Virus record (IMG/VR): IMGVR_UViG_2799112432_000001
Coordinates: 1-35,813 of that record
Strand: one strand, 5' to 3'
Source: a virus
DNA: 35,813 nt
Positions 5,219-26,166 of the stretch are shown piece after piece. Below the pieces are notes generated by a model, which did not search any database, was not told where the DNA came from, and saw nothing but the letters and a program-made list of their open reading frames with translations. The position numbers and the translations under genes are program-made. Positions within the stretch are counted from its first letter, which is position 1; every line of letters begins with the position of its first letter.

Positions 5219-6406
5219 ATGGATAATGAGCTAAAGATTGAATATTTGCCTGTTGGCAGTTTGAAGCCGTATGAAAAGAACGCTCGTAAGCATCAAGATG
5301 CAGATGTGCAGACGATTGTGGCGAGTATAAAGGAATTTGGATTCGATGACCCCATTGGCGTTTGGGGCGAGGACAATCTCATTGTTGAGGGTCACGGGCG
5401 TTTGATGGCGGCGAAAAAACTCGGGATGGAGACTGTGCCTGTTATCCACCTTGACCATCTGACGGATGAACAGCGGAGAGCGTATGCATTGGCGCATAAT
5501 AAGACCGCCGAGATGAGCGAGTGGGACTTTGACCTTCTTAGCGGCGAACTTGACGGCATATTTGATATTGATATGTCAGAGCTTGGATTTGACCTTGATT
5601 TTGACGGGTATGAAGAACCTGCTGAAATTATAGAAGATGAAGTCCCCGAAGAAGTAGAAACACGGTGCAAGCTTGGAGATATATGGCAACTCGGAGACCA
5701 CAAATTGATTTGTGGAGATTCTACGGATGTTGCGGTTATTGATAGGCTTATGGATGGGGTAAAGGCTGATATGGTGTTTACTGACCCTCCATATGGAATG
5801 AATCTTGATACAGACTATTCAAAAATGGATAATGAAAGTAGCAACGCAGAGTTTCGCAAACGAAAAAATATAGTCGGCGGAAAAAAATATGAGCAAGGCA
5901 AGGTTGACGAATTTCACCCCGAAATGATAGATGCGGTATTTGCAATAGATACAGACGAAATGTTTTTATGGGGTGCTGACTATTTTTCAGAATTATTACC
6001 AAACAAAAATGATGGGGCTTGGATTGTATGGGATAAAAGGGATGACAATGAGCAATTTGATAAAATGTACGGAAGTCAATTTGAATTATGTTGGAGCAAA
6101 AAGAAACACAAAAGAGAAATCGCAAGAGTAAGGTGGTGTGGAGTATTTGGAACGGAAACAGAATTTGACCACAAGAGGCATCATCCCACACAGAAGCCAA
6201 TCAAACTTGCATCATGGTTTTTAGAAAGATATAGCAAGGAAAATGATATTGTTGTTGATATATTCGGCGGTAGTGGTAGCACACTAATAGCCTGTGAACA
6301 GTTAAACAGAAAATGCTATATGGCTGAACTCGACCCACACTATTGTGATGTGATTATTTCAAGATATGAAAACTTTACAGGGAAAGCGGCAGTAAAAGTA
6401 AGCTGA
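5219..6406 (+). CDS. ParB-like N-terminal domain fused to a DNA methyltransferase (N6A/N4C, beta class)
   Basis: The N-terminus (LKPYEKNARKH...IVEGHGRLMAAKKLG) is ParB/Srx-like. The DPPY motif IV (MVFTDPPYG) comes before the SAM motif I (DIFGGSGSTLIACEQLNRK), the order seen in PF01555-type beta-class enzymes. Confidence 0.85.
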   Translation: MDNELKIEYLPVGSLKPYEKNARKHQDADVQTIVASIKEFGFDDPIGVWGEDNLIVEGHGRLMAAKKLGMETVPVIHLDHLTDEQRRAYALAHNKTAEMSEWDFDLLSGELDGIFDIDMSELGFDLDFDGYEEPAEIIEDEVPEEVETRCKLGDIWQLGDHKLICGDSTDVAVIDRLMDGVKADMVFTDPPYGMNLDTDYSKMDNESSNAEFRKRKNIVGGKKYEQGKVDEFHPEMIDAVFAIDTDEMFLWGADYFSELLPNKNDGAWIVWDKRDDNEQFDKMYGSQFELCWSKKKHKREIARVRWCGVFGTETEFDHKRHHPTQKPIKLASWFLERYSKENDIVVDIFGGSGSTLIACEQLNRKCYMAELDPHYCDVIISRYENFTGKAAVKVS

Positions 6407-19328: not shown

Positions 19329-21950
19329 ATGAATAATATAACATATGCCGTAAGTGTTGACGTGAACAATCCAATTATACCGTATAACGTGTATGTGGCA
19401 AGCGTTTTGGATTCAAACGTGAGATACCTTGAAATAACGTTGTATCAAAACGGCAATGTTATTGCACTTAGTAATACTGCAACCGCAACGGCATCGCTTG
19501 TGACAGATAACGTGCTTGTAAATGATAGTGTTAACTGTACTATTTCAGGCAGTATCATAACCGTGCCGTTGGAGGACTTACAGCGGCACGGTAATCTTGA
19601 TGTACAGGTAACTGTCACTGAGGGTACAAAGGTTTTAGCAATTCCGTTTCCAATACAAGTAAGGGTGACTCCGAATATTGCGGAGGAAGCGCAAATTGAC
19701 AATGACTCGCTCGGATCATACGCCGAGGTGGTCAGAGAGATCGCCGCCGCCCGGGGTGATTATCCCGACCTTAAAGACAGGCTCGATGGTGAGATTGACA
19801 GAATTGATGATGATATTTCAGACATCAACACGGCACTGCTGGGTAAGGCAAACAAGGCTGCCGCAGGCTCCGCCGGAGAGCTGGCGGCGCTGGACGGTAA
19901 CGGGTCGCCGATACGGTCTGGCGTTTCGGTTATACAAAGCATCGGCGAGGGCAGCAACAGCAGGGTGCCGACGACGGCGGCGGTGAAAAATGCGCTGGAC
20001 GGAAAGGCGGACAAGGCTGCGGCAGGAACCGACGGCGAGCTGGCTGCGCTGGACGATAACGGGGCGCTGAAACGGTCGGGGGTCACGGTTGCGCAGAGCG
20101 TCGGCGAGGGCAGCACTGACAAGGTGCCGACGACTGAGGCTGTGCGTAACGCGCTGAACGACGCGGAAGATACAACCGCTGAAAACATAGATTGGATTTT
20201 TCAGGGTAACAGCGCCTTTTTTCCGCAACTGTATTTTGAGCAGTATTTCACAGCAAACGGCAGCAATTACAGGCTGATCTATGATGATAGAGACGGCGAA
20301 AGACATGTGCTGTTTGACTTTGCGCAGCTGCCTGCCGCTACGGGTGAGAAGGGAGAGAAGGGCGACCCCGGCAACGATTATGTTTTGACCGAGCAGGACA
20401 AGGCAGACATTGCGGGAATGGTGGACATAAGCGGAAAAGCCGACAAGGCGACAACGCTTGCAGGGTACGGCATCACAGACGCGTACACCAAAACGCAGAC
20501 AGACACTTTTTTCTCGGACACAAACGCCGACATCGCCGACCTCAAAGCTTATATCGGCTACACCGACGGCGATATCCTCGGCTTGCATGCCGATTTTGAG
20601 AACAAGGTATTTACAAGGCTCGGCGCGGCAGTCGGACTGACGGCAGGTCAGGATTTCAATGCTTTCACGATGTACGGTGGCAGACGCAGGTGCTGTGTTT
20701 CTAATGATGGAACGATTAATGCCTACTACGGAGAACAGGATTATGTCGAAGATGGCTCCAATGGTCAGGTCATGGTGTATCAGCCGAAATTCTACTACTG
20801 CATGGTGCCGCTCAAGCTCGAAAAACAGGCTTCCGGAATAGGCTATCATATCCGCAAGGCGAATTACTACGTTACCGCGAATCCGCATCCCGGCTTCAAG
20901 CTCCATCCGCTCTTTTACGACGCGAACGGCAATGAGGTCGACTATGTGCTCCTCTCGGCGTATGAGGGCAGCATGTACGATGTATCTGAATCGGCTTACG
21001 TCAACGACGGCGTTGACAGCATCAGCTACGCGAGCGGCGACCTGCTCTGCTCGGTATCGGGCAAAAAGCCGATCAGCGGCAAGCTTGGCGGTGTTGGAAG
21101 CAAAACACAGTTTGAAACAATGGCAAACAATATTGGTTCCGGCTGGCATCTGAACACCATCAAGGCTGAAAGTGCAAACCGACTTCTGATGATTATTGAA
21201 CTGGGAAGGTTCAACACACAGGCGGCTATTGGTCAGGGTGTTGTTAGACAGTCAGGTGCATCAGGTGCAGACAATGCTTCATCTTTAACTGGTTCAACAG
21301 CAAACCTTGGCAATGGAACAGGACAAGCAACAGAAACCATTGCTGAATCAGCTGGAACGGAAACTGTCAACACAACAAGCAGCAAACTGTCTATCAGTTA
21401 CAGAGGTGTTGAAAATCCTTGGGGCAACATCTGGAAGCATACCAACGGCATCAACCTTTGGGGTGATGGTCACATGGGCGGTGGTCAGGTGTTCATTTGT
21501 GATGATTTCAGCTTCAGTGAAAGCAAGCACGATGGAAATTATCAGTCAGCAGGATTCACCATTTCCAATGGTAACGGTTATGTTTCCGCATTTGGTTATG
21601 GTGATGAAGAATTTGACTGGTTGTTCATGCCCTCAGAAACAACCGGAAACAGTTCACTTCCTGTTGGTGATAACTATTGGTGTACACCCAACCTGAATGG
21701 TTACCGTATTGCTCTATTGGGCGGTAAGTGGAATGACTTTGCTGATGCGGGCGGTTTCTGTTGGCGTTGTGCCGATCCGCCCGGCACTCGGCATTTCGTT
21801 ATCGGCGGTCGCTTGCTGTATGTACCGACCGCAACGGGTTTCGGACCGCAGGGACCGGCAGGCAGTAACTACGCCCTCACTGCCGCCGACAGGCAGGCGA
21901 TCGCGCAGATCGCGATGGACGGCTTGAACGGAAACGGGGTGGCGTACTGA
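19329..21950 (+). CDS. receptor-binding / tail fibre protein (BppU-like N-terminal anchor, fibre repeats, collagen-like triplets, globular C-terminal domain)
   Basis: The N-terminal ~115 aa (ITYAVSVDVNN...LDSNVRYLEITLYQNG...ITVPL...VQVTV...PFPIQVRVTPNI) resemble the BppU_N Ig-like domain. Next come 2x53-aa repeats, GEKGEKGDPG, LAGYGITDAYTKTQTD, and a C-terminal GGKWND...GGFCWRC...IGGRLLYVP segment. Confidence 0.7.
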   Translation: MNNITYAVSVDVNNPIIPYNVYVASVLDSNVRYLEITLYQNGNVIALSNTATATASLVTDNVLVNDSVNCTISGSIITVPLEDLQRHGNLDVQVTVTEGTKVLAIPFPIQVRVTPNIAEEAQIDNDSLGSYAEVVREIAAARGDYPDLKDRLDGEIDRIDDDISDINTALLGKANKAAAGSAGELAALDGNGSPIRSGVSVIQSIGEGSNSRVPTTAAVKNALDGKADKAAAGTDGELAALDDNGALKRSGVTVAQSVGEGSTDKVPTTEAVRNALNDAEDTTAENIDWIFQGNSAFFPQLYFEQYFTANGSNYRLIYDDRDGERHVLFDFAQLPAATGEKGEKGDPGNDYVLTEQDKADIAGMVDISGKADKATTLAGYGITDAYTKTQTDTFFSDTNADIADLKAYIGYTDGDILGLHADFENKVFTRLGAAVGLTAGQDFNAFTMYGGRRRCCVSNDGTINAYYGEQDYVEDGSNGQVMVYQPKFYYCMVPLKLEKQASGIGYHIRKANYYVTANPHPGFKLHPLFYDANGNEVDYVLLSAYEGSMYDVSESAYVNDGVDSISYASGDLLCSVSGKKPISGKLGGVGSKTQFETMANNIGSGWHLNTIKAESANRLLMIIELGRFNTQAAIGQGVVRQSGASGADNASSLTGSTANLGNGTGQATETIAESAGTETVNTTSSKLSISYRGVENPWGNIWKHTNGINLWGDGHMGGGQVFICDDFSFSESKHDGNYQSAGFTISNGNGYVSAFGYGDEEFDWLFMPSETTGNSSLPVGDNYWCTPNLNGYRIALLGGKWNDFADAGGFCWRCADPPGTRHFVIGGRLLYVPTATGFGPQGPAGSNYALTAADRQAIAQIAMDGLNGNGVAY
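19842..20159 (+). repeat. 2 x 159-nt in-frame tandem duplication inside the fibre gene
   Basis: GKANKAAAGSAGELAALDGNGSPIRSGVSVIQSIGEGSNSRVPTTAAVKNALD is followed by GKADKAAAGTDGELAALDDNGALKRSGVTVAQSVGEGSTDKVPTTEAVRNALN. The unit boundaries are 19842/20001/20159. Confidence 0.85.
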
Positions 21951-23791
21951 TGGGACAGAAGTTCTATAATGAAGCGGATGTGCAGGCGATAGCCGCCGCG
22001 ATCCGCGCCAAAAACGGCACGCAGAACACCTACACCGTCAGTCAGATGCCGGCGGCGATAGCGGCGATCACAACGGGCGTGCCGGCTGAAACGCTTGTTT
22101 ATGCGCAGCGCAACGCCGCCGCAGGCGCGTTTGTGGACGAGGTGACCTACGACCCTGCCGATTATACCGTGAGCCGTATCGCGGCATATGTTGGCGCAAG
22201 CGGCAACGACAAGCCCCTCGGCGGCACGTTTTCAGCCCCCGAAAACGGCAGGGTGGTCCTGCTCGACAGCGGCAGATGTGCCGTGCTGACGGTCAGCGCA
22301 GGAAACAATACGCTCTACAATATCACGCCGAACACCACGGGCGCGTTCGTCTTTTTGACCCAAGACGACCGCATCGGCGCGGTCGGCACGCTCCGACCGG
22401 GCGGCGCCCTGCGCATGCTCAAACTGAATGACGCGTCGAACGTCCGCGACCTCGGCGGCTGGGCTTGCGACGGTGGCACGGTGCGCTACGGCAAGCTCTT
22501 CCGCGGCAGCCGGCTGTTTATCAGCGGCAGTGTCAACGCCTACGACAAGACGGTGCTGCACGACCTGCTCGGCATACAGCACGAGCTCGACCTGCGCTAC
22601 GCAAACGAGCTGGAACGCGACTTTTCGCTGATCGGCAGCGACGTGGACTGGACGCACATCGACGGCGCATGGTACGCGATAAGAGACAGCGCAAAATGCC
22701 GTGCGATCCTTGAATGCGTGTTTGACTGCGTTCTGAACGGAATCCCTCTGTATTTTCACTGCGCAGGCGGCGCCGACAGGACCGGCACACTATCTATGTG
22801 GCTCGAAGCCCTGCTCGGCGTTTCGCAGAGCGACATCGACAAGGACTATGAGCTGACAAGTTTTTTTTCGGGCGTTGCCACCGACGCGCAGGCGCGCCGC
22901 AGAAACGAAAGCGAATGGCAGGGCTTGATAACGGCGTTTCGGGATTATCCGGGCGACACTATCCGCGACAGGGTCTTTGCATGGACAGTCACGTTGGGAA
23001 TACCGGTCGCAACAATCAACGCTTTTCGTGCCGCCATGATAAACGGCACGCCGCAAGCGCTGGTGAATCCCTACGGCACGGTCGCGGTCGGTCAGGCGCT
23101 CACGCGCATAACCATTGACAATGCGGCGCAGTCAACCGAGATGTATCAGCCTTACACGGCGACCCTCAGCGCCGACAGCGGTTATTCCCTCGCCGGCGCG
23201 AGCGTTGCGGTCACGATGGGCGGCGTTGACGTGACGGCGGACTGCTATCAGAACGGCGTTATTCACATTGAGCAGGTGACCGGTGCGCTGACCATCACTG
23301 CGACTGCCGCGGCGCAGTACACTAACCAAATTCTATTTGCAACCGACGCCATCGGCGGCACGGCGCTCTACAACGGCACCGGCTACAAGCAGGGCTACCG
23401 CTGGACTACGAGCAACACCGAGGACAACGGCGAAATTTCGGGCATCCCGAACAAGTTCGCGGTCGGCTACATCAAGGTAGAGCCGGGCGATGTGGTGCAC
23501 CTCTACGGCGACATCTGGAAGGGCACCTCCGGCGGTATCTCGATGCACGTCCAAAACGCGACGGACACAAGATTGGTGCGCGCAACATTGGCAAACTGGT
23601 CGGACGGCTATACGGCGCGGTCAGACATCATGGCATATATGTCCGACATCGACTACGACGACACCACCAAGACGCTGCGCTCCTTTAGGTGGACAGGCGG
23701 CACAAGCGCCGTCACGGGCTACATGCACTGGACGTTTGTCGGCGTTTTTGACGCGTACCAAACTGTATTGACGATTAATGAGGAGATGTAA
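21950..23791 (+). CDS. tail fibre-module protein with an internal tyrosine-phosphatase-fold (Y_phosphatase3-like) domain
   Basis: It contains NVRDLGGW...VRYGKLFRGSRL...LGIQHELDLRYANE...YFHCAGGADRTGTLSMWLEALLGVSQSDIDKDYELT, with a CX5R P-loop at 22757-22786. The N-terminus is fibre-style (YTVSQMPAAIAAI) and the C-terminus is beta-rich. ATGA-type overlap with the upstream stop. Confidence 0.75.
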   Translation: MGQKFYNEADVQAIAAAIRAKNGTQNTYTVSQMPAAIAAITTGVPAETLVYAQRNAAAGAFVDEVTYDPADYTVSRIAAYVGASGNDKPLGGTFSAPENGRVVLLDSGRCAVLTVSAGNNTLYNITPNTTGAFVFLTQDDRIGAVGTLRPGGALRMLKLNDASNVRDLGGWACDGGTVRYGKLFRGSRLFISGSVNAYDKTVLHDLLGIQHELDLRYANELERDFSLIGSDVDWTHIDGAWYAIRDSAKCRAILECVFDCVLNGIPLYFHCAGGADRTGTLSMWLEALLGVSQSDIDKDYELTSFFSGVATDAQARRRNESEWQGLITAFRDYPGDTIRDRVFAWTVTLGIPVATINAFRAAMINGTPQALVNPYGTVAVGQALTRITIDNAAQSTEMYQPYTATLSADSGYSLAGASVAVTMGGVDVTADCYQNGVIHIEQVTGALTITATAAAQYTNQILFATDAIGGTALYNGTGYKQGYRWTTSNTEDNGEISGIPNKFAVGYIKVEPGDVVHLYGDIWKGTSGGISMHVQNATDTRLVRATLANWSDGYTARSDIMAYMSDIDYDDTTKTLRSFRWTGGTSAVTGYMHWTFVGVFDAYQTVLTINEEM

Positions 23792-23798
23792 ATAAAGC

Positions 23799-24263
23799 AT
23801 GAAAGATTTGATTCACATTCTTTTCGCCGGAGCCGTCGGTGCTCTGGCGGCATATTTTAACGTTTTAGCCGTGCCGCTGGTCGTGCTGGTCGCGGCCATG
23901 CTGATTGATTATGTCACCGGCATGACGGCGGCAAGCTACACAAAGCAGCTCAACAGCCGCGTCGGCGTGATCGGTATTGTCAAAAAGGTCTGCTATTTGG
24001 CGCTGGTCGCGGTCGGTATGGTGGTTGATTACCTGATAAGCTCGGCGCTGGTTTCCATCGGCATCAGCTTGCAGATCAATTATTGTTTCGGTATGATTAT
24101 AACCGTCTGGCTGATTATCAATGAATTGATTTCAATTTTGGAGAACCTCGGCGAGATGGGCGTGCCGCTGCCGTCGTTTTTGACAAGCATGATCAAGACG
24201 TTAAAGAGTAAGGTTGAGGAACAGGGCAAGCATTATCAAAAAGACAAGGATTCGGAGGAATGA
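23799..24263 (+). CDS. holin (Phage_holin_4_1 / toxin-secretion-holin type)
   Basis: Multiple TM helices. LIDYVTGMTAASYTKQLNSRVGVIGIVKKV matches the D-x-x-TG...S-x-x-G-x-x-G-x-x-KK motif of that holin family. It lies upstream of the endolysin. Confidence 0.7.
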   Translation: MKDLIHILFAGAVGALAAYFNVLAVPLVVLVAAMLIDYVTGMTAASYTKQLNSRVGVIGIVKKVCYLALVAVGMVVDYLISSALVSIGISLQINYCFGMIITVWLIINELISILENLGEMGVPLPSFLTSMIKTLKSKVEEQGKHYQKDKDSEE

Positions 24264-24532
24264 ACATGTTAGGAAACAAAGAATTTATTGAACAGAGTAA
24301 GCAGATCGTGCATGATTACGCGGTCGAGCATATGGACAAGACCGACACGGTACCTCCGTTTGATGTGTTTGTTGTGTGGAGTTGTAAAATTCTTCAGAAC
24401 CACAAGGCGCTGCTGAGCACGACGCTAACGGACGGCATGTACTATGAGATCACCTATAACGGCGACAAAAAAGAGGCATACCTCGACGCGTACAAGAAAT
24501 TCGAAACCCGCGTCGTGATGAAGGAGGATTGA
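24260..24532 (+). CDS. hypothetical protein between holin and endolysin
   Basis: 90 aa, overlapping both neighbours. VFVVWSCKILQNHKALLST...YYEITYNGDKKEAYLDAYKK looks like a small conserved phage family seen near lysis genes (from memory, unverified). Confidence 0.5.
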   Translation: MNMLGNKEFIEQSKQIVHDYAVEHMDKTDTVPPFDVFVVWSCKILQNHKALLSTTLTDGMYYEITYNGDKKEAYLDAYKKFETRVVMKED

Positions 24533-24534
24533 CC

Positions 24535-26166
24535 ATGAACATCATCAACAAAAAAGGCGTCGATATTTCATCCAACAACGGCAAGGTCGATTTCGGGAAA
24601 ATCAAGGCGGCGGGTTATGATTTCGTCATGATCCGCTGCGGCTTCGGTGAGAACATTCCTGAGCAGGACGACACCTTCTGGGAGGAAAACGTCCGCAAAG
24701 CCGAGGCGGCAAACATGCCGTGGGGTGCGTACTTCTATTCCTACGCCTGTTCCGAGGCAAGCGCTAAAAGCGAGCTGGAGCACGTCCTCCGCTTGCTCAA
24801 GGGCAAGAAGCCGACGCTCCCTGTTGCGTTCGACATGGAGGATGCAGACGGATACAAAGCGCGTCACGGCGGCTGGAACCGTACCAACGTGACGAGAGCC
24901 TGCAAGATTTTCCTCGAAGGAATTGCGAAAGCGGGATATTATCCGATGATTTATGCCGGTTTTGAGGAAAAGGACAACCTCATTTCTTCTGCGGTGTGGA
25001 ACAGCCATGATATCTGGTTCCCACATTGGGCGAGAGAATGCGGCTACAAGGGTGACAATCTCAGCATGTGGCAGTACGGCGGCGAGACCAACCTGATTGA
25101 TGGAAACAGTATCCCCGGCGTCGGAGTGATCGACAAAAATCTGTGCTATAAAGACTATCCGACGATTATCAAGGATAGTGGCAAGAATGGCTGGAGCGGC
25201 TCCGGCAAGACTCCTGACAAGCCGAAAGTCAGCGGCATAACGGCAGAGCAGGCAATGAGTGCAGCGCGAGGTCTTGTCGGTAAAGACGAAGATCCCGACG
25301 AATGCGACATCATGAAATGGTACGGCGGCTTTGATACGGACATCAATGAAATCGCCTGCTGTTGCGCCGGTATAATGTATTTGTTTTTCAAGATACTCAA
25401 CGCAGGAAGCCTCATCCCCGGGGGCAAGGTCGCGGATTGCGGCTCAATCGCGCTGAATTTTTACAAAGCAGGACAGCTCCACAAGCCGTCCGAGGTAAAG
25501 CCCGGCGACATTGTCGTATTTTCATGGAGCCACAGCAAAACGTCGGTTTCACCGCTTAACAATCTCGGATATATGTGCTTTGAGCACGTAGAGCTCTGCC
25601 TCAAGGTTTTTGATGATACCATTTTGAGCATTGGCGCGAATAACGGCGGTATTGAGTGCGACGATTTTCAGATCAAGACGCGCAGCCGCTCGGATATTTC
25701 CGCCTGCTGCCGTCCGAACTACGCCGACGGCGGGGAAGAGGACACCGCGGCGACTGTCACCGAGGCGGTCTACGGCGATAAAAACGTCTATGAAATCCAG
25801 CAGTGGCTCAACAGTCATTTCGGCTTTGATATTTACATCGACGGCGTGTACGGTCCTCAGACGCGCGCGGCTCTTGTCATGGCGCTGCAGACCGTTCTCA
25901 ACCGCGATTACGGCGCTGATCTGGAGGTCGACGGCATCTACGGAAGATTGACGAGAAAAGCAGTGGTCAACCTCGAGCGCGGAGCCTACGGCGATTACGT
26001 CAAGGTGCTGCAGGGCTTTCTGATCTGCATGGGCTACGACACGGGCGGCTTCGACGGCGATTTCGGCGGTAGAACCGAGGAATCGGTCAAAACCTTCCAG
26101 ACGGTGAGAGACTTATATGTCGACGGCATAGCCGGTAAAGCAACTTTTGAAGAACTCACGGGGTAA
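24535..26166 (+). CDS. endolysin: GH25 muramidase + CHAP/NlpC-P60-like domain + 2 x PG_binding_1
   Basis: The N-terminus KGVDISSNNGKVDFGKIKAAGYDFVMIRCGFG is GH25-like. The middle (IACCCAGIMYLFF...KPGDIVVFSW...FEHVELCL...SIGANNG) follows a CHAP-like Cys/His pattern. The C-terminus has two DG-x-YG/FG-x-x-T repeats, as in PG_binding_1. ATG 24535 has a GGAGGA RBS; TTG 24529 is the alternative start. Confidence 0.8.
   Translation: MNIINKKGVDISSNNGKVDFGKIKAAGYDFVMIRCGFGENIPEQDDTFWEENVRKAEAANMPWGAYFYSYACSEASAKSELEHVLRLLKGKKPTLPVAFDMEDADGYKARHGGWNRTNVTRACKIFLEGIAKAGYYPMIYAGFEEKDNLISSAVWNSHDIWFPHWARECGYKGDNLSMWQYGGETNLIDGNSIPGVGVIDKNLCYKDYPTIIKDSGKNGWSGSGKTPDKPKVSGITAEQAMSAARGLVGKDEDPDECDIMKWYGGFDTDINEIACCCAGIMYLFFKILNAGSLIPGGKVADCGSIALNFYKAGQLHKPSEVKPGDIVVFSWSHSKTSVSPLNNLGYMCFEHVELCLKVFDDTILSIGANNGGIECDDFQIKTRSRSDISACCRPNYADGGEEDTAATVTEAVYGDKNVYEIQQWLNSHFGFDIYIDGVYGPQTRAALVMALQTVLNRDYGADLEVDGIYGRLTRKAVVNLERGAYGDYVKVLQGFLICMGYDTGGFDGDFGGRTEESVKTFQTVRDLYVDGIAGKATFEELTG

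Follow-up and report, generated by a model that had tools for sequence, protein, structure and literature searches.

Gene order in the window

The window analyzed here is the whole 35,813-nucleotide stretch of the IMG/VR virus record IMGVR_UViG_2799112432_000001. Searches against Pfam and PHROGs gave the gene order TMP, Dit, Tal, an 873-aa fibre protein, the gene under study (the PTP gene, encoding the PTP protein), holin, DUF6275, and GH25 lysin, which makes the PTP gene the final tail gene, ahead of the holin and the endolysin (Table 1). The open reading frame delimited in an earlier note on this DNA was recovered on the same strand and translates into the 613-aa protein quoted there. The note had also described the upstream protein as BppU-like; this description was not borne out, as no BppU match was obtained in Pfam, and the protein instead matched phrog_5302 ('tail protein') and tail-fibre proteins, its C-terminal half being homologous to phage tail-fibre or tail proteins.

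When the window was compared with deposited phage genomes (INPHARED), no near-identical DNA match was found, and searching INPHARED with the PTP protein returned a single match, an unannotated 7-kb faecal fragment with 31% identity. The PTP protein had no match in PHROGs, NCBIfam, or PADLOC, and with regard to anti-phage defence it matched none of the PADLOC system models.

Table 1 Features of the PTP gene and its neighbours; coordinates refer to the window.
Feature	Coordinates	Strand	Basis
Upstream 873-aa tail fibre protein	19329..21950	+	phrog_5302 tail protein, E 1e-86; junction sequence
C-terminal tail of the fibre protein (GPQGPAGSNYALTAADRQAIAQIAMDGLNGNGVAY), proposed docking partner of the adaptor	21843..21947	+	co-conservation with the adaptor
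Whole PTP gene, 613-aa distal tail-fibre-like protein with embedded PTP-fold phosphatase	21950..23791	+	ORF, translation, AF2 model
N-terminal helical adaptor, aa 1-45, exchangeable	21950..22084	+	helices 8-22 and 30-39 (AF2)
Helix + beta domain, aa 46-157, constant companion of the PTP domain	22085..22420	+	core conservation
PF13350 (Y_phosphatase3) PTP-fold catalytic domain, aa 158-376	22421..23077	+	Pfam, Foldseek, family profile
N-V-R-D-L-G-G-W-A-C-D-G-G motif, aa 164-176	22439..22477	+	invariant columns, 51 sequences
P-loop H270-C271-A-G-G274-A275-D276-R277-T278-G279	22757..22786	+	sequence, conservation
Ig-like beta domain, aa 377-455, 'VTMGGVDVT' motif	23078..23314	+	AF2 strands, identity to P0142
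Terminal beta-sandwich 'head', aa 456-613	23315..23788	+	model pLDDT 95.5
Holin, closing the tail module	23799..24263	+	PF05105 Phage_holin_4_1, E 2.6e-33
Endolysin, GH25 and two PG_binding_1 domains	24529..26166	+	Pfam, PHROGs

The embedded domain and its active site

Residues 158 to 376 matched PF13350 in Pfam with an E-value of 4.7e-25, and a score of 89.4 bits against a cut-off of 22.2 places this match far beyond chance. The alignment covered profile positions 2-214 of 240, and a second, weak Pfam match was to PTP-SAK. The AF2 model of the PTP protein (pLDDT 92.4, pTM 0.75) retrieved 8DHJ, 8DHI, and 1YWF in Foldseek at E about 1e-8 and probability 1.0 (8DHJ_B: E 1.0e-8, TMt 0.66; 1YWF: E 1.5e-8, TMt 0.64), while the family profile, when searched against the PDB, found the Clostridioides difficile PTP 8DHI at E 1.1e-16. 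The PF13350 match and the PTP-fold structural matches had both been anticipated in the earlier note, which had located the domain at 22427-23044 (aa 160-365), and all the motifs listed for that segment were present.

The sequence Y-F-H-C-A-G-G-A-D-R-T-G is encoded at 22751-22786, with the Cys codon at 22760-22762 reading TGC, and the CX5R P-loop (C271-A-G-G-A-D-R277) is intact, as had been claimed. Residues H270, C271, G274, A275, D276, R277, T278, and G279 were invariant (51/51 sequences), and the pattern HCxxGxDRT[GA] was present in all 120 retrieved homologs, in lineages down to about 35% identity. In the upstream motif, W171, C173, and D174 were likewise invariant in the 51 sequences and are specific to the subfamily of the PTP gene; the residues corresponding to W171 and C173 in the C. 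difficile PTP are N and T. The domain is thus an intact PF13350 PTP-fold enzyme module.

The P-loop signature of the ALPs is HCXXGKDR[TA]G, and its extra basic Lys is important for substrate binding (Beresford et al., 2010, as cited in PMC6409689). By analogy with the residue roles in the account of this signature given there (PMC6409689), the Cys of the PTP protein would be the nucleophile, the Asp the acid/base, and the Arg the phosphate-binding residue. The acid/base Asp is retained as the invariant D276, but the Lys position is occupied by Ala275 in 51/51 sequences and by A in 118 of the 120 homologs, the other two having G and T. The DLR motif noted earlier is present; however, its Asp, D214, is not conserved (D in 28, N in 17, E in 4, and S in 2 of the 51 sequences). 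Because the ALP Lys is replaced by Ala and D214 varies, the known relatives are no guide to the substrate class.

Cys-based PTP-fold enzymes hydrolyse phosphomonoesters and some phosphoanhydrides, and we know of none that cuts the phosphodiester backbones typical of teichoic acids. The cleavage of teichoic-acid-type phosphodiester polymers envisaged in the earlier note therefore falls outside the reactions known for this type of enzyme, which makes dephosphorylation likelier than polymer cleavage.

The replacement of the ALP Lys, the N, E, or S found at position 214 in 23 of the 51 sequences, and the location of the domain in a receptor-binding-protein-like protein would also suit a non-catalytic role, in which the PTP domain grips anionic wall polymers (teichoic acids, phospho-glycans) as a lectin-like substrate trap that does not hydrolyse them. 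We consider such a role unlikely, since a pure binder should, on general grounds, lose the Cys or the Asp in some lineages, whereas Cys271, Asp276, Arg277, and His270 were each kept in every one of the 51 sequences and the P-loop was intact in every homolog retrieved.

Companion domains

Across family representatives, the conserved core spans approximately aa 46-435. The helix + beta domain at its start is repeated alongside each PTP copy in triple-PTP proteins, and it had no credible relative in the PDB. A profile of the beta domain (aa 44-157) matched designer 'Pizza' propellers at E about 1e-8; these matches were rejected because the score was summed from six short AGT-x-x-VTD-like repeats, each with an i-Evalue of at least 20. 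The major tail protein P0142 (phrog_820, E 8e-26) has two copies of the Ig-like domain at its C-terminus, with 41-44% identity to the copy in the PTP protein.

The terminal head, as modeled, is a candidate receptor-binding domain, and it forms the sole cargo of an adaptor protein, P0137 (hhalign probability 97.4%, E 1.5e-11). The C-terminus is beta-rich, as the earlier note had stated, but the carbohydrate binding proposed for it found no support: Foldseek and profile searches gave no significant PDB or PHROG relatives of the head (the best Foldseek PDB match had E 4.8e-3 and probability 0.47) and no recognisable lectin or carbohydrate-binding-module relative. With nothing significant in these searches, carbohydrate binding by the head stays a guess.

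Adaptor and junction with the fibre gene

Over its first approximately 43 residues, the adaptor shares 84-89% identity with the N-termini of 169-183-aa proteins and 68% with the N-terminus of a BspA-LRR protein bearing another cargo; the adaptor is thus found on BspA-LRR cargo and on head-only cargo too. Word-index searches run separately with the N- and C-terminal regions returned few proteins but revealed these alternative cargos. At locus L008, the slot of the PTP gene is filled by P0124. L006 and L008 have retained the sequence on both sides of the cargo, namely the fibre-gene end with the adaptor and, beyond it, the holin, but the cargo in between differs. In L005, L006, and L008, the adaptor and the C-terminal tail of the fibre are conserved together, while fibre body and cargo both differ. 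The class of adaptor changes in step with the motif that ends the upstream protein, though the bodies of the upstream proteins are unrelated, and a '...DGTEVSY*'-type tail ends the upstream protein in 64 of 75 IMG/VR loci, a redundant sample whose 75 proteins reduce to 24 clusters at 90% identity and to 2 at 50%. In this family, therefore, the N-terminal region used for attachment is conserved and the domains distal to it can be exchanged. No description of the joint between the adaptor and the '...DGTEVSY*' tail was found in the searchable literature.

The stop codon of the fibre gene and the start codon of the PTP gene overlap as TGATG, and in 59 of the 75 IMG/VR loci the upstream gene and the PTP gene are spaced by -1 or +1 nt. 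The PTP gene has neither a promoter-like nor a terminator-like site of its own at its flanks. A fusion of the fibre and PTP reading frames by read-through or frameshift was considered and rejected, because the spacing can be either -1 or +1 nt and the two frames therefore bear no constant relation to each other.

Distribution of the family and genomic context

At E<=1e-30, the family comprises 446 clusters at 50% identity. It is present on at least 189 IMG/VR contigs, and relatives in similar phages number thousands. Homologs also hold the terminal tail slot in L001, L002/L003, L014, and L018, and in L015 the homolog lies inside a baseplate cluster (BppU_N, PTP gene, two small ORFs, LRR_5); recurrence of the domain in phage tail modules, a check proposed in the earlier note, was thus observed in these loci as well as in IMG/VR. 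Among the 51 IMG/VR loci whose sequence continues far enough downstream, 34 have a lysis gene within 3.5 kb. Phage genes were absent from three (L009, L010, and L017) of about eleven contexts examined. Fusions to tail-protein modules were found in P0188, which joins Phage_fiber_rpt and a tail-fibre PHROG to the PTP core, and in P0209, which joins a tail-fibre PHROG to it; together with the Ig-like domain common to P0142, they show that bona fide tail-protein domains are shared with, or fused to, the family. In the comparative tests that we ran, the PTP protein consistently behaves as a modular tail-fibre component.

The PTP gene has a GC content of 60% compared with 43.5% in the rest of the window, and the high-GC block takes in the 3' part of the fibre gene as well. 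An assembly chimera was judged an unlikely source of this jump, because low-GC phage sequence resumes downstream and the GC offsets of homologs go both ways. The GC difference points to recent acquisition, the interval between fibre and lysis genes is generally known to house accessory genes, and some homologs lie outside recognisable phage regions. These observations would agree with a moron or lysogenic-conversion gene, that is, a cytoplasmic phosphatase expressed from the prophage and absent from the virion, placed by chance in the fibre-lysis cargo site. We rate this as distinctly improbable: the gene lacks regulatory sites of its own and starts within the fibre stop codon, its adaptor is matched to the upstream C-terminus, its Ig-like domain recurs in a major tail protein, fibre repeats are fused to homologs, the high-GC block extends into the fibre gene, and the scan of window ORFs revealed no integrase.

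PF13350 relatives such as PtpB dephosphorylate proteins and phosphoinositides. A reference title in PMC6409689 terms PtpB-type relatives triple-specificity phosphatases, which would fit an effector ejected into the cell together with the DNA and dephosphorylating host phosphoproteins, for instance in BY-kinase or Ser/Thr/Tyr signalling over capsule or defence. A 613-aa multi-domain protein with Ig-like and head domains, encoded in a fibre slot, is unlike known ejection proteins, and the N-termini of cellular homologs, signal-peptide-like in P0205 and with a prepilin N_methyl motif in P0268, point to an extracellular site of action; we therefore regard an ejected effector as very unlikely.

The records and samples are of gut and rumen origin, and Pho16B is a secreted PF13350 enzyme with phytase activity (PMC6409689). 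On these grounds, the virion phosphatase might hydrolyse organophosphates of the gut or rumen (phytate, for example), or it might mediate attachment to glycans of the host animal or its diet, without taking a direct part in adsorption. The benefit to the phage would not be obvious, and its strict association with fibre adaptors and with the exchange of host-range cassettes speaks for a role in host recognition, leaving environmental substrates with very little likelihood.

Comparison with known systems

The ALPs (M. tuberculosis PtpB 1YWF, Listeria lmo1800, and Pho16B) share the Pfam family and the fold of the PTP domain, as well as the N-x-RDLGG and HCxxGxDRTG motifs and the P-loop Asp that is their acid/base. 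They differ in having Lys in HCXXGKDR[TA]G where the PTP protein has Ala, in lacking the invariant W-x-C-D-G-G extension of the PTP-gene subfamily, and in being stand-alone enzymes of roughly 250-380 aa, whereas the PTP domain is part of a 613-aa multi-domain protein. The nearest solved structure by both sequence and fold is the C. difficile PTP (8DHI/8DHJ), also from a Clostridia organism. It is a single-domain protein of 249 aa that has the ALP Lys (HCTAGKDRTG) and lacks the adaptor, beta, Ig-like, and head domains; no functional paper on it was found.

Among tail proteins, GDPD phosphodiesterases occur in tail modules of Gram-positive phages (enterococcal phages, the baseplate of Lactobacillus phage Ld17), and these enzymes and phi29 gp12 are thought to process teichoic acids during adsorption (PMC10194240, PMC6116005). 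They are phospho-ester hydrolases carried on the tail or baseplate, with the same biological logic and genome neighbourhood as the PTP gene. In contrast to the Cys-thiolate phosphomonoesterase fold of the PTP protein, they are metal-/His-dependent phosphodiesterases (GDPD) or have a beta-helix, and the PTP protein had no Pfam match to PF03009 (GDPD, two catalytic His and metal ligands). Modular receptor-binding proteins and tail fibres likewise keep an N-terminal anchor while distal cargo is swapped, with mosaic GC and an adjoining lysis cassette; what distinguishes the PTP protein is that its cargo includes a PTP-fold enzyme and that its adaptor is paired with a short '...DGTEVSY*'-type tail at the C-terminus of the protein before it.

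The glucan phosphatases laforin and SEX4, which are eukaryotic and intracellular, join a carbohydrate-binding module (CBM20 or CBM48) to a DSP. Like the PTP protein, they combine PTP-superfamily catalysis with beta-sandwich binding domains, in their case for the dephosphorylation of a polysaccharide, and they offer the best mechanistic analogy, though only an analogy, for a phospho-glycan substrate; no CBM20/CBM48-like module was detected in the PTP protein.

A PTP-fold domain on a phage tail was not described in the searchable literature, where 'tyrosine phosphatase' and 'tail fiber' were paired only in reference lists or unrelated mentions; this agrees with the earlier note, which knew of no characterised example.

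Proposed function

Tail-borne enzymes are among the determinants of host range and are exploited as a source of depolymerases and antimicrobials, and to our knowledge the well-known ones all cleave glycan, peptide, ester, or phosphodiester. On balance, we lean towards reading the PTP gene of this gut/rumen phage as encoding a distal fibre subunit with a working cysteine phosphatase that acts on the host surface; from the comparisons above we infer its virion location, catalytic activity, extracellular envelope substrate, and role in adsorption. The fibre and PTP genes would be translationally coupled, and the adaptor (aa 1-45) would dock onto the conserved C-terminal tail of the upstream fibre protein. 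Residues 46-455 would form an enzymatic core composed of the beta domain, the PF13350 PTP-fold domain, and the Ig-like domain as a spacer, followed by the terminal beta-sandwich head (aa 456-613). On a host that would be a Gram-positive anaerobe (Clostridia), the head and beta domains may hold the fibre tip on the envelope while the phosphatase strips phosphate from a molecule on the cell surface; this could be a wall or capsular glycopolymer that bears phosphate groups, or else a phosphate or pyrophosphate linked to lipid. In this reaction Cys271 would be the nucleophile, Arg277 would clamp the phosphate, and Asp276 would serve as acid/base, and removal of the phosphate could unmask, process, or destroy the receptor, at adsorption or at release. 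It counts against this mechanism that the uncultured host is not known to have a surface polymer bearing phosphomonoesters.

Our findings suggest that phages of anaerobic Gram-positive bacteria strip host-surface phosphate during attachment, and the PTP proteins, whose function we infer, probably represent a new catalytic class of tail-associated envelope-modifying enzyme. A further point against the mechanism is that an exposed catalytic Cys would be sensitive to oxidation outside anoxic habitats. A wider proposal is advanced tentatively, as possible but doubtful: that virion-borne Cys phosphatases acting on wall or capsular glycopolymers or lipid-linked phosphates are widespread and unrecognised, that their thiol is viable only in the anoxic gut and rumen, and that the '...DGTEVSY*' tail and the adaptor form a general plug and socket for cargo swaps in Clostridia phages.

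If correct, this would add a fourth envelope-processing chemistry to glycosidases/lyases, esterases, and metal-dependent phosphodiesterases. A Cys phosphatase on the fibre would supply an enzyme class for annotating many 'hypothetical' tail proteins in gut viromes, and it would point to phosphorylated surface structures of the abundant, poorly studied gut and rumen Clostridia as phage receptors or barriers. An oxygen-sensitive virion enzyme confined to anoxic niches would be a testable case, and the modular adaptor/socket joint might be of use in engineering phages of anaerobes.

Apart from these considerations, the homolog at L017 adjoins a polysaccharide locus with NAGPA, LicD, Wzx, and glycosyltransferases, which is suggestive of a phospho-glycan link; being a single case and convergently transcribed, it was kept out of the evidence.

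Identity and fold of the PTP domain

The earlier note had described a tyrosine-phosphatase-fold (PTP-fold) domain inside a tail-fibre-module protein, and this observation is real. The 613-aa ORF (the PTP gene) is present and translates as stated, all the listed motifs were found in the translated segment, and the cysteine codon, TGC, lies within an intact P-loop (Y-F-H-C-A-G-G-A-D-R-T-G), as had been claimed. Pfam assigned the domain to PF13350 (Y_phosphatase3), the family anticipated there, with an E-value of 4.7e-25 and a score of 89.4 bits (gathering score 22.2). When the PDB was searched with a family profile of 51 sequences, the profile matched the Clostridioides difficile PTP (8DHI, E 1.1e-16) and Mycobacterium tuberculosis PtpB (E 3.7e-6). 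The AlphaFold2 model built from the 51-sequence alignment (mean pLDDT 92.4, pTM 0.75) featured five segments. In Foldseek, its central domain showed the expected PTP fold, matching 8DHJ/8DHI and PtpB (E ~1e-8, probability 1.0, target TM 0.64-0.66), followed by Siw14, VH1, TpbA, and DUSPs. The head domain had no significant PDB relative by fold (best E 4.8e-3, probability 0.47), nor any in profile searches of the PDB and PHROGs.

Features of the window and of the homologous loci
Feature	Position	Description
ParB_N-like/methyltransferase gene	window 5219-6406	
Fibre gene	window 19329-21950 (+)	873 aa
High-GC block	window ~19600-23800	55-66% GC, ~42% elsewhere
Gene-boundary joint	window 21843-22084	
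Segment shared with L005	window 21843-24244	94.7% DNA identity
PTP gene	window 21950-23791 (+)	613 aa
Adaptor	aa 1-45	two short helices
Beta domain	aa 46-157	helix + beta domain
PTP domain	aa 158-376	PF13350
Motif series	window 22427-23044	aa 160-365
Cys173 codon	window 22466-22468	W-x-C-D-G-G
Cys271 codon	window 22760-22762	catalytic thiol
Ig-like domain	aa 377-455	
Head	aa 456-613	beta-sandwich
DUF6275 gene	window 24260-24532	between holin and endolysin
Endolysin gene	window 24529-26166	
Raised-GC part of endolysin gene	window 24600-26000	51-57% GC
Esterase/PTP locus	L002 8337-10001	
Rumen MAG remnant	L005 9762-12320	
Rumen MAG remnant	L006 9156-11021	
Triple-unit locus	L009 444-3413	
NTP_transf_5 locus	L010 320-3661	
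NTP_transf_5 locus	L017 1910-11847	

An exhaustive HMMER search covering 1.84 billion representatives returned 7,540 relatives at E<=1e-3, of which 3,219 reached E<=1e-10 and 446 reached E<=1e-30; the conserved core spans approximately residues 46-435. The ~990-aa relatives P0013, P0015-P0017, and P0020 consist of three tandem units of beta domain plus PTP domain with intact P-loops, and they are devoid of the adaptor, Ig-like, and head domains. With three units in one chain, they might imitate a trimer of the phage protein.

Conservation of the catalytic residues

Among 51 full-length homologs (37-80% identity to the query), the residues H270, C271, G274, A275, D276, R277, T278, and G279 were invariant, as were N164, R166, D167, G169, G170, W171, C173, and D174, and likewise D295, D297, K298, Y300, and E301. 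The motif HCxxGxDRT[G/A] was kept in 120/120 retrieved homologs. The 'DLR' aspartate (D214), which had been listed as part of the motif series, proved variable (D in 28, N in 17, E in 4, and S in 2 of the 51). From these alignments, we conclude that the catalytic machinery is under strong purifying selection. A purely phosphate-binding, non-catalytic role for the domain is disfavoured by the universal retention of Cys, Asp, and Arg.

The signature HCXXGKDR[TA]G defines the atypical lipid phosphatase (ALP) group, which includes PtpB; its Asp acts as the acid/base catalyst, and its Lys contributes to substrate binding (PMC6409689). In the family studied here, the Asp is retained invariantly, whereas the Lys is replaced by Ala, and we conclude that the substrate pocket differs from that of phosphoinositide-type ALPs. 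Cys173 is a second invariant cysteine specific to this PF13350 subfamily and lacking in the C. difficile PTP; as a possible back-door cysteine, it would guard the catalytic thiol of Cys271 through a reversible disulfide.

Genomic position and coupling to the fibre gene

Six independent lines of comparison mark the product as a probable tail protein. The gene order of the window is that of a siphophage-type genome, in which terminase, SPP1-type portal, Mu-F, and scaffold genes are followed by TMP, Dit, and Tal and then by the 873-aa fibre, the PTP gene, holin, DUF6275, and a GH25 endolysin. The fibre belongs to phrog_5302, and over its C-terminal half it has homologs annotated as tail-fibre and tail proteins. 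The domain recurs in phage tail modules: PTP homologs hold the last-tail-gene slot in loci L001, L002/L003, L014, and L018, and in L015 the homolog lies inside the baseplate cluster. At least 189 viral contigs in IMG/VR carry PTP relatives, and a recognisable lysis gene was found within 3.5 kb downstream in 34 of the 51 retrieved loci with more than 2.5 kb of downstream sequence.

The fibre stop codon and the PTP start codon overlap as TGATG, and the gap to the upstream ORF is -1 or +1 nt in 59/75 IMG/VR loci, a redundant sample whose 75 proteins fall into 24 clusters at 90% identity, 7 at 70%, and 2 at 50%. No promoter-like or terminator-like site setting the PTP gene apart was found. Five loci were missed by the ORF caller, four of which carry an intact P-loop.

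Adaptor, docking tail, and cargo exchange

The modularity of this region is evident from comparison with other loci. A rumen Clostridiales MAG (L005) matches the window over a segment of 94.7% DNA identity. With L006 and L008, conservation (~77%) is confined to the fibre gene's final ~90 nt, the adaptor at the start of the PTP gene (its first ~130 nt), and the holin, and a 183-aa protein replaces the PTP cargo. The same adaptor bears a BspA-type LRR cargo in P0136 and the terminal head domain alone in P0137 (hhalign probability 97.4%). The upstream proteins have unrelated bodies (the 873-aa fibre, a GDSL esterase, collagen-like, BppU_N, and several small proteins), and all finish in a short conserved docking tail, its type following the adaptor class: '...[DN]G[TSDN][EG]V[SA]Y*' is paired with M-x-K-K-[LF]-Y-x-E adaptors, '...GG[IV]ENGSY*' with MALTDKLTAIGNAIR adaptors, and '...ANANGGSF*' with MAEYLTNTADL adaptors. 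The tail motif was present on the abutting upstream ORF in 64/75 IMG/VR loci.

This conserved joint was seen in the window and in L001, L002, L005, L006, L008, L011-L016, and L018-L098. The upstream ORF ends in '...DGTEVSY*', '...NGNGVAY*', or '...GGIENGSY*', and after a gap of -1 or +1 nt the matching ~45-aa adaptor begins, with the PTP core, a BspA-LRR, small beta domains, or the head alone as cargo. Judged by these sequence pairings, the joint resembles a plug and socket for the distal tail proteins of Clostridia phages; no description of it was found in open-access papers and bioRxiv. In the rumen MAG loci L005 and L006, all that is left is a fibre-gene stub of 79 or 281 aa that still has the docking tail at its end, together with the cargo gene and the holin; in L006 this set is flanked by non-phage genes, and in L005 no long + strand ORF reaches the stub. 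These remnants are degraded prophages or mis-assemblies in which the joint is still intact.

In L002, a related prophage, the gene directly preceding the PTP gene encodes a GDSL/SGNH esterase tail protein with the docking motif at its end, and the BFVD entries A0A8S5RAI3 and A0A8S5S5I6, GDSL-lipase and 'hydrolase' tail proteins, share non-PTP parts of the fold. A single fibre may carry several envelope-modifying enzymes in a chain.

Shared virion domains, fusions, and cellular relatives

The major tail protein P0142 (phrog_820, E 8e-26) has two C-terminal copies of the Ig-like domain, with 41-44% identity to it. In P0188, Phage_fiber_rpt (28.0 bits, cut-off 27) and a tail-fibre PHROG are joined to the PTP core; in P0209, the core is joined to a tail-fibre PHROG and the element 'S-T-I-V-Y-D-G-S-A-A-Q-T-V-E-I', which in other phages is the end of a separate upstream ORF. 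That the gene is a moron encoding a cytoplasmic enzyme is disfavoured by these fusions and shared virion domains, together with the coupling and the adaptor logic.

Two further relatives carry the PTP core behind a prepilin N-methylation motif (P0268, 916 aa; 24.8 bits, cut-off 21.2) or a signal-peptide-like N-terminus (P0205, 737 aa). These predicted N-termini indicate that cellular relatives, too, probably work outside the cytoplasm, and imply putative exported or pilus-displayed phosphatases in gut Firmicutes. Both proteins also carry terminal beta-sandwich domains with '...TINE[EP]I'-like ends. An ejected effector is disfavoured by the protein architecture and by these exported relatives.

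Three contexts, L009, L010, and L017, had no phage genes. L009, the single locus available for the triple-unit relatives, encodes a 990-aa protein with three tandem beta-plus-PTP units, and the homologs in L010 and L017 adjoin an NTP_transf_5 (PF14907) gene. In L017, the convergently transcribed neighbours form a wall-polysaccharide locus with a Wzx flippase, glycosyltransferases, LicD, and a 1460-aa NAGPA phosphodiester glycosidase. This locus is a possible hint at phospho-glycan substrates.

Proposed function and novelty

We propose that the product would be a fibre-tip phosphohydrolase acting on the host envelope during adsorption. In PTP-fold enzymes, a Cys thiolate attacks phosphomonoesters and, in some subfamilies, phosphoanhydrides; no cleavage of phosphodiester backbones is known for them, and for this reason removal of a terminal or side-chain phosphate is more likely than teichoic acid depolymerisation, the first suggestion of the earlier note. 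Glucan phosphatases, which combine a carbohydrate-binding module with a DSP domain, offer the best functional analogy. The best biological precedents are the GDPD phosphodiesterases on Gram-positive phage tails and phi29 gp12 (PMC10194240, PMC6116005). Pho16B, a PF13350 enzyme with broad phosphomonoesterase and phytase activity, is secreted, and the family is therefore able to work extracellularly (PMC6409689). An environmental (phytate) role would lack a rationale, given the linkage to host-range cassettes. Every source identified was gut or rumen, which fits the view that a virion could make use of an oxidation-sensitive thiol enzyme only in anoxic habitats.

Full-length relatives from uncultivated gut phages are already in BFVD and UniProt, where automatic naming calls them 'Tyrosine phosphatase family protein' (A0A8S5V632, with a Foldseek E of 1.4e-59, is one of them); thus, the sequences are not new. 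No paper noting or characterising a PTP-fold domain on a phage tail was found in the full text of open-access papers and bioRxiv, in line with the earlier note, which knew of no characterised example. Among tail-associated enzymes that modify the envelope, the product would bring a new catalytic fold and a new chemistry. The finding is genuine and common in phages, and phage biologists would not expect it. Domain identity, the intact catalytic set, and the modularity of the tail module are shown; virion location, activity, and substrate are putative.

Base composition and other features of the window

With a GC content of 60.2%, the PTP gene stands out from the remainder of the window (43.5%). 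The high-GC block begins inside the fibre gene (~19,600-19,800) and covers the PTP gene, and part of the endolysin gene is also raised. This suggests that the host-recognition module was recently acquired from a phage of a higher-GC host. Over the homologous loci, the GC offset of the PTP gene ranges from -0.19 to +0.17, which fits a cassette moving between phages of hosts with different GC.

The window ORFs scanned included no integrase. The endolysin combines GH25, a ~240-aa central region matched by endolysin PHROGs only, and two PG_binding_1 repeats. Immediately ahead of the terminase gene lies a fusion of a ParB_N-like domain with an N6/N4 DNA methyltransferase.
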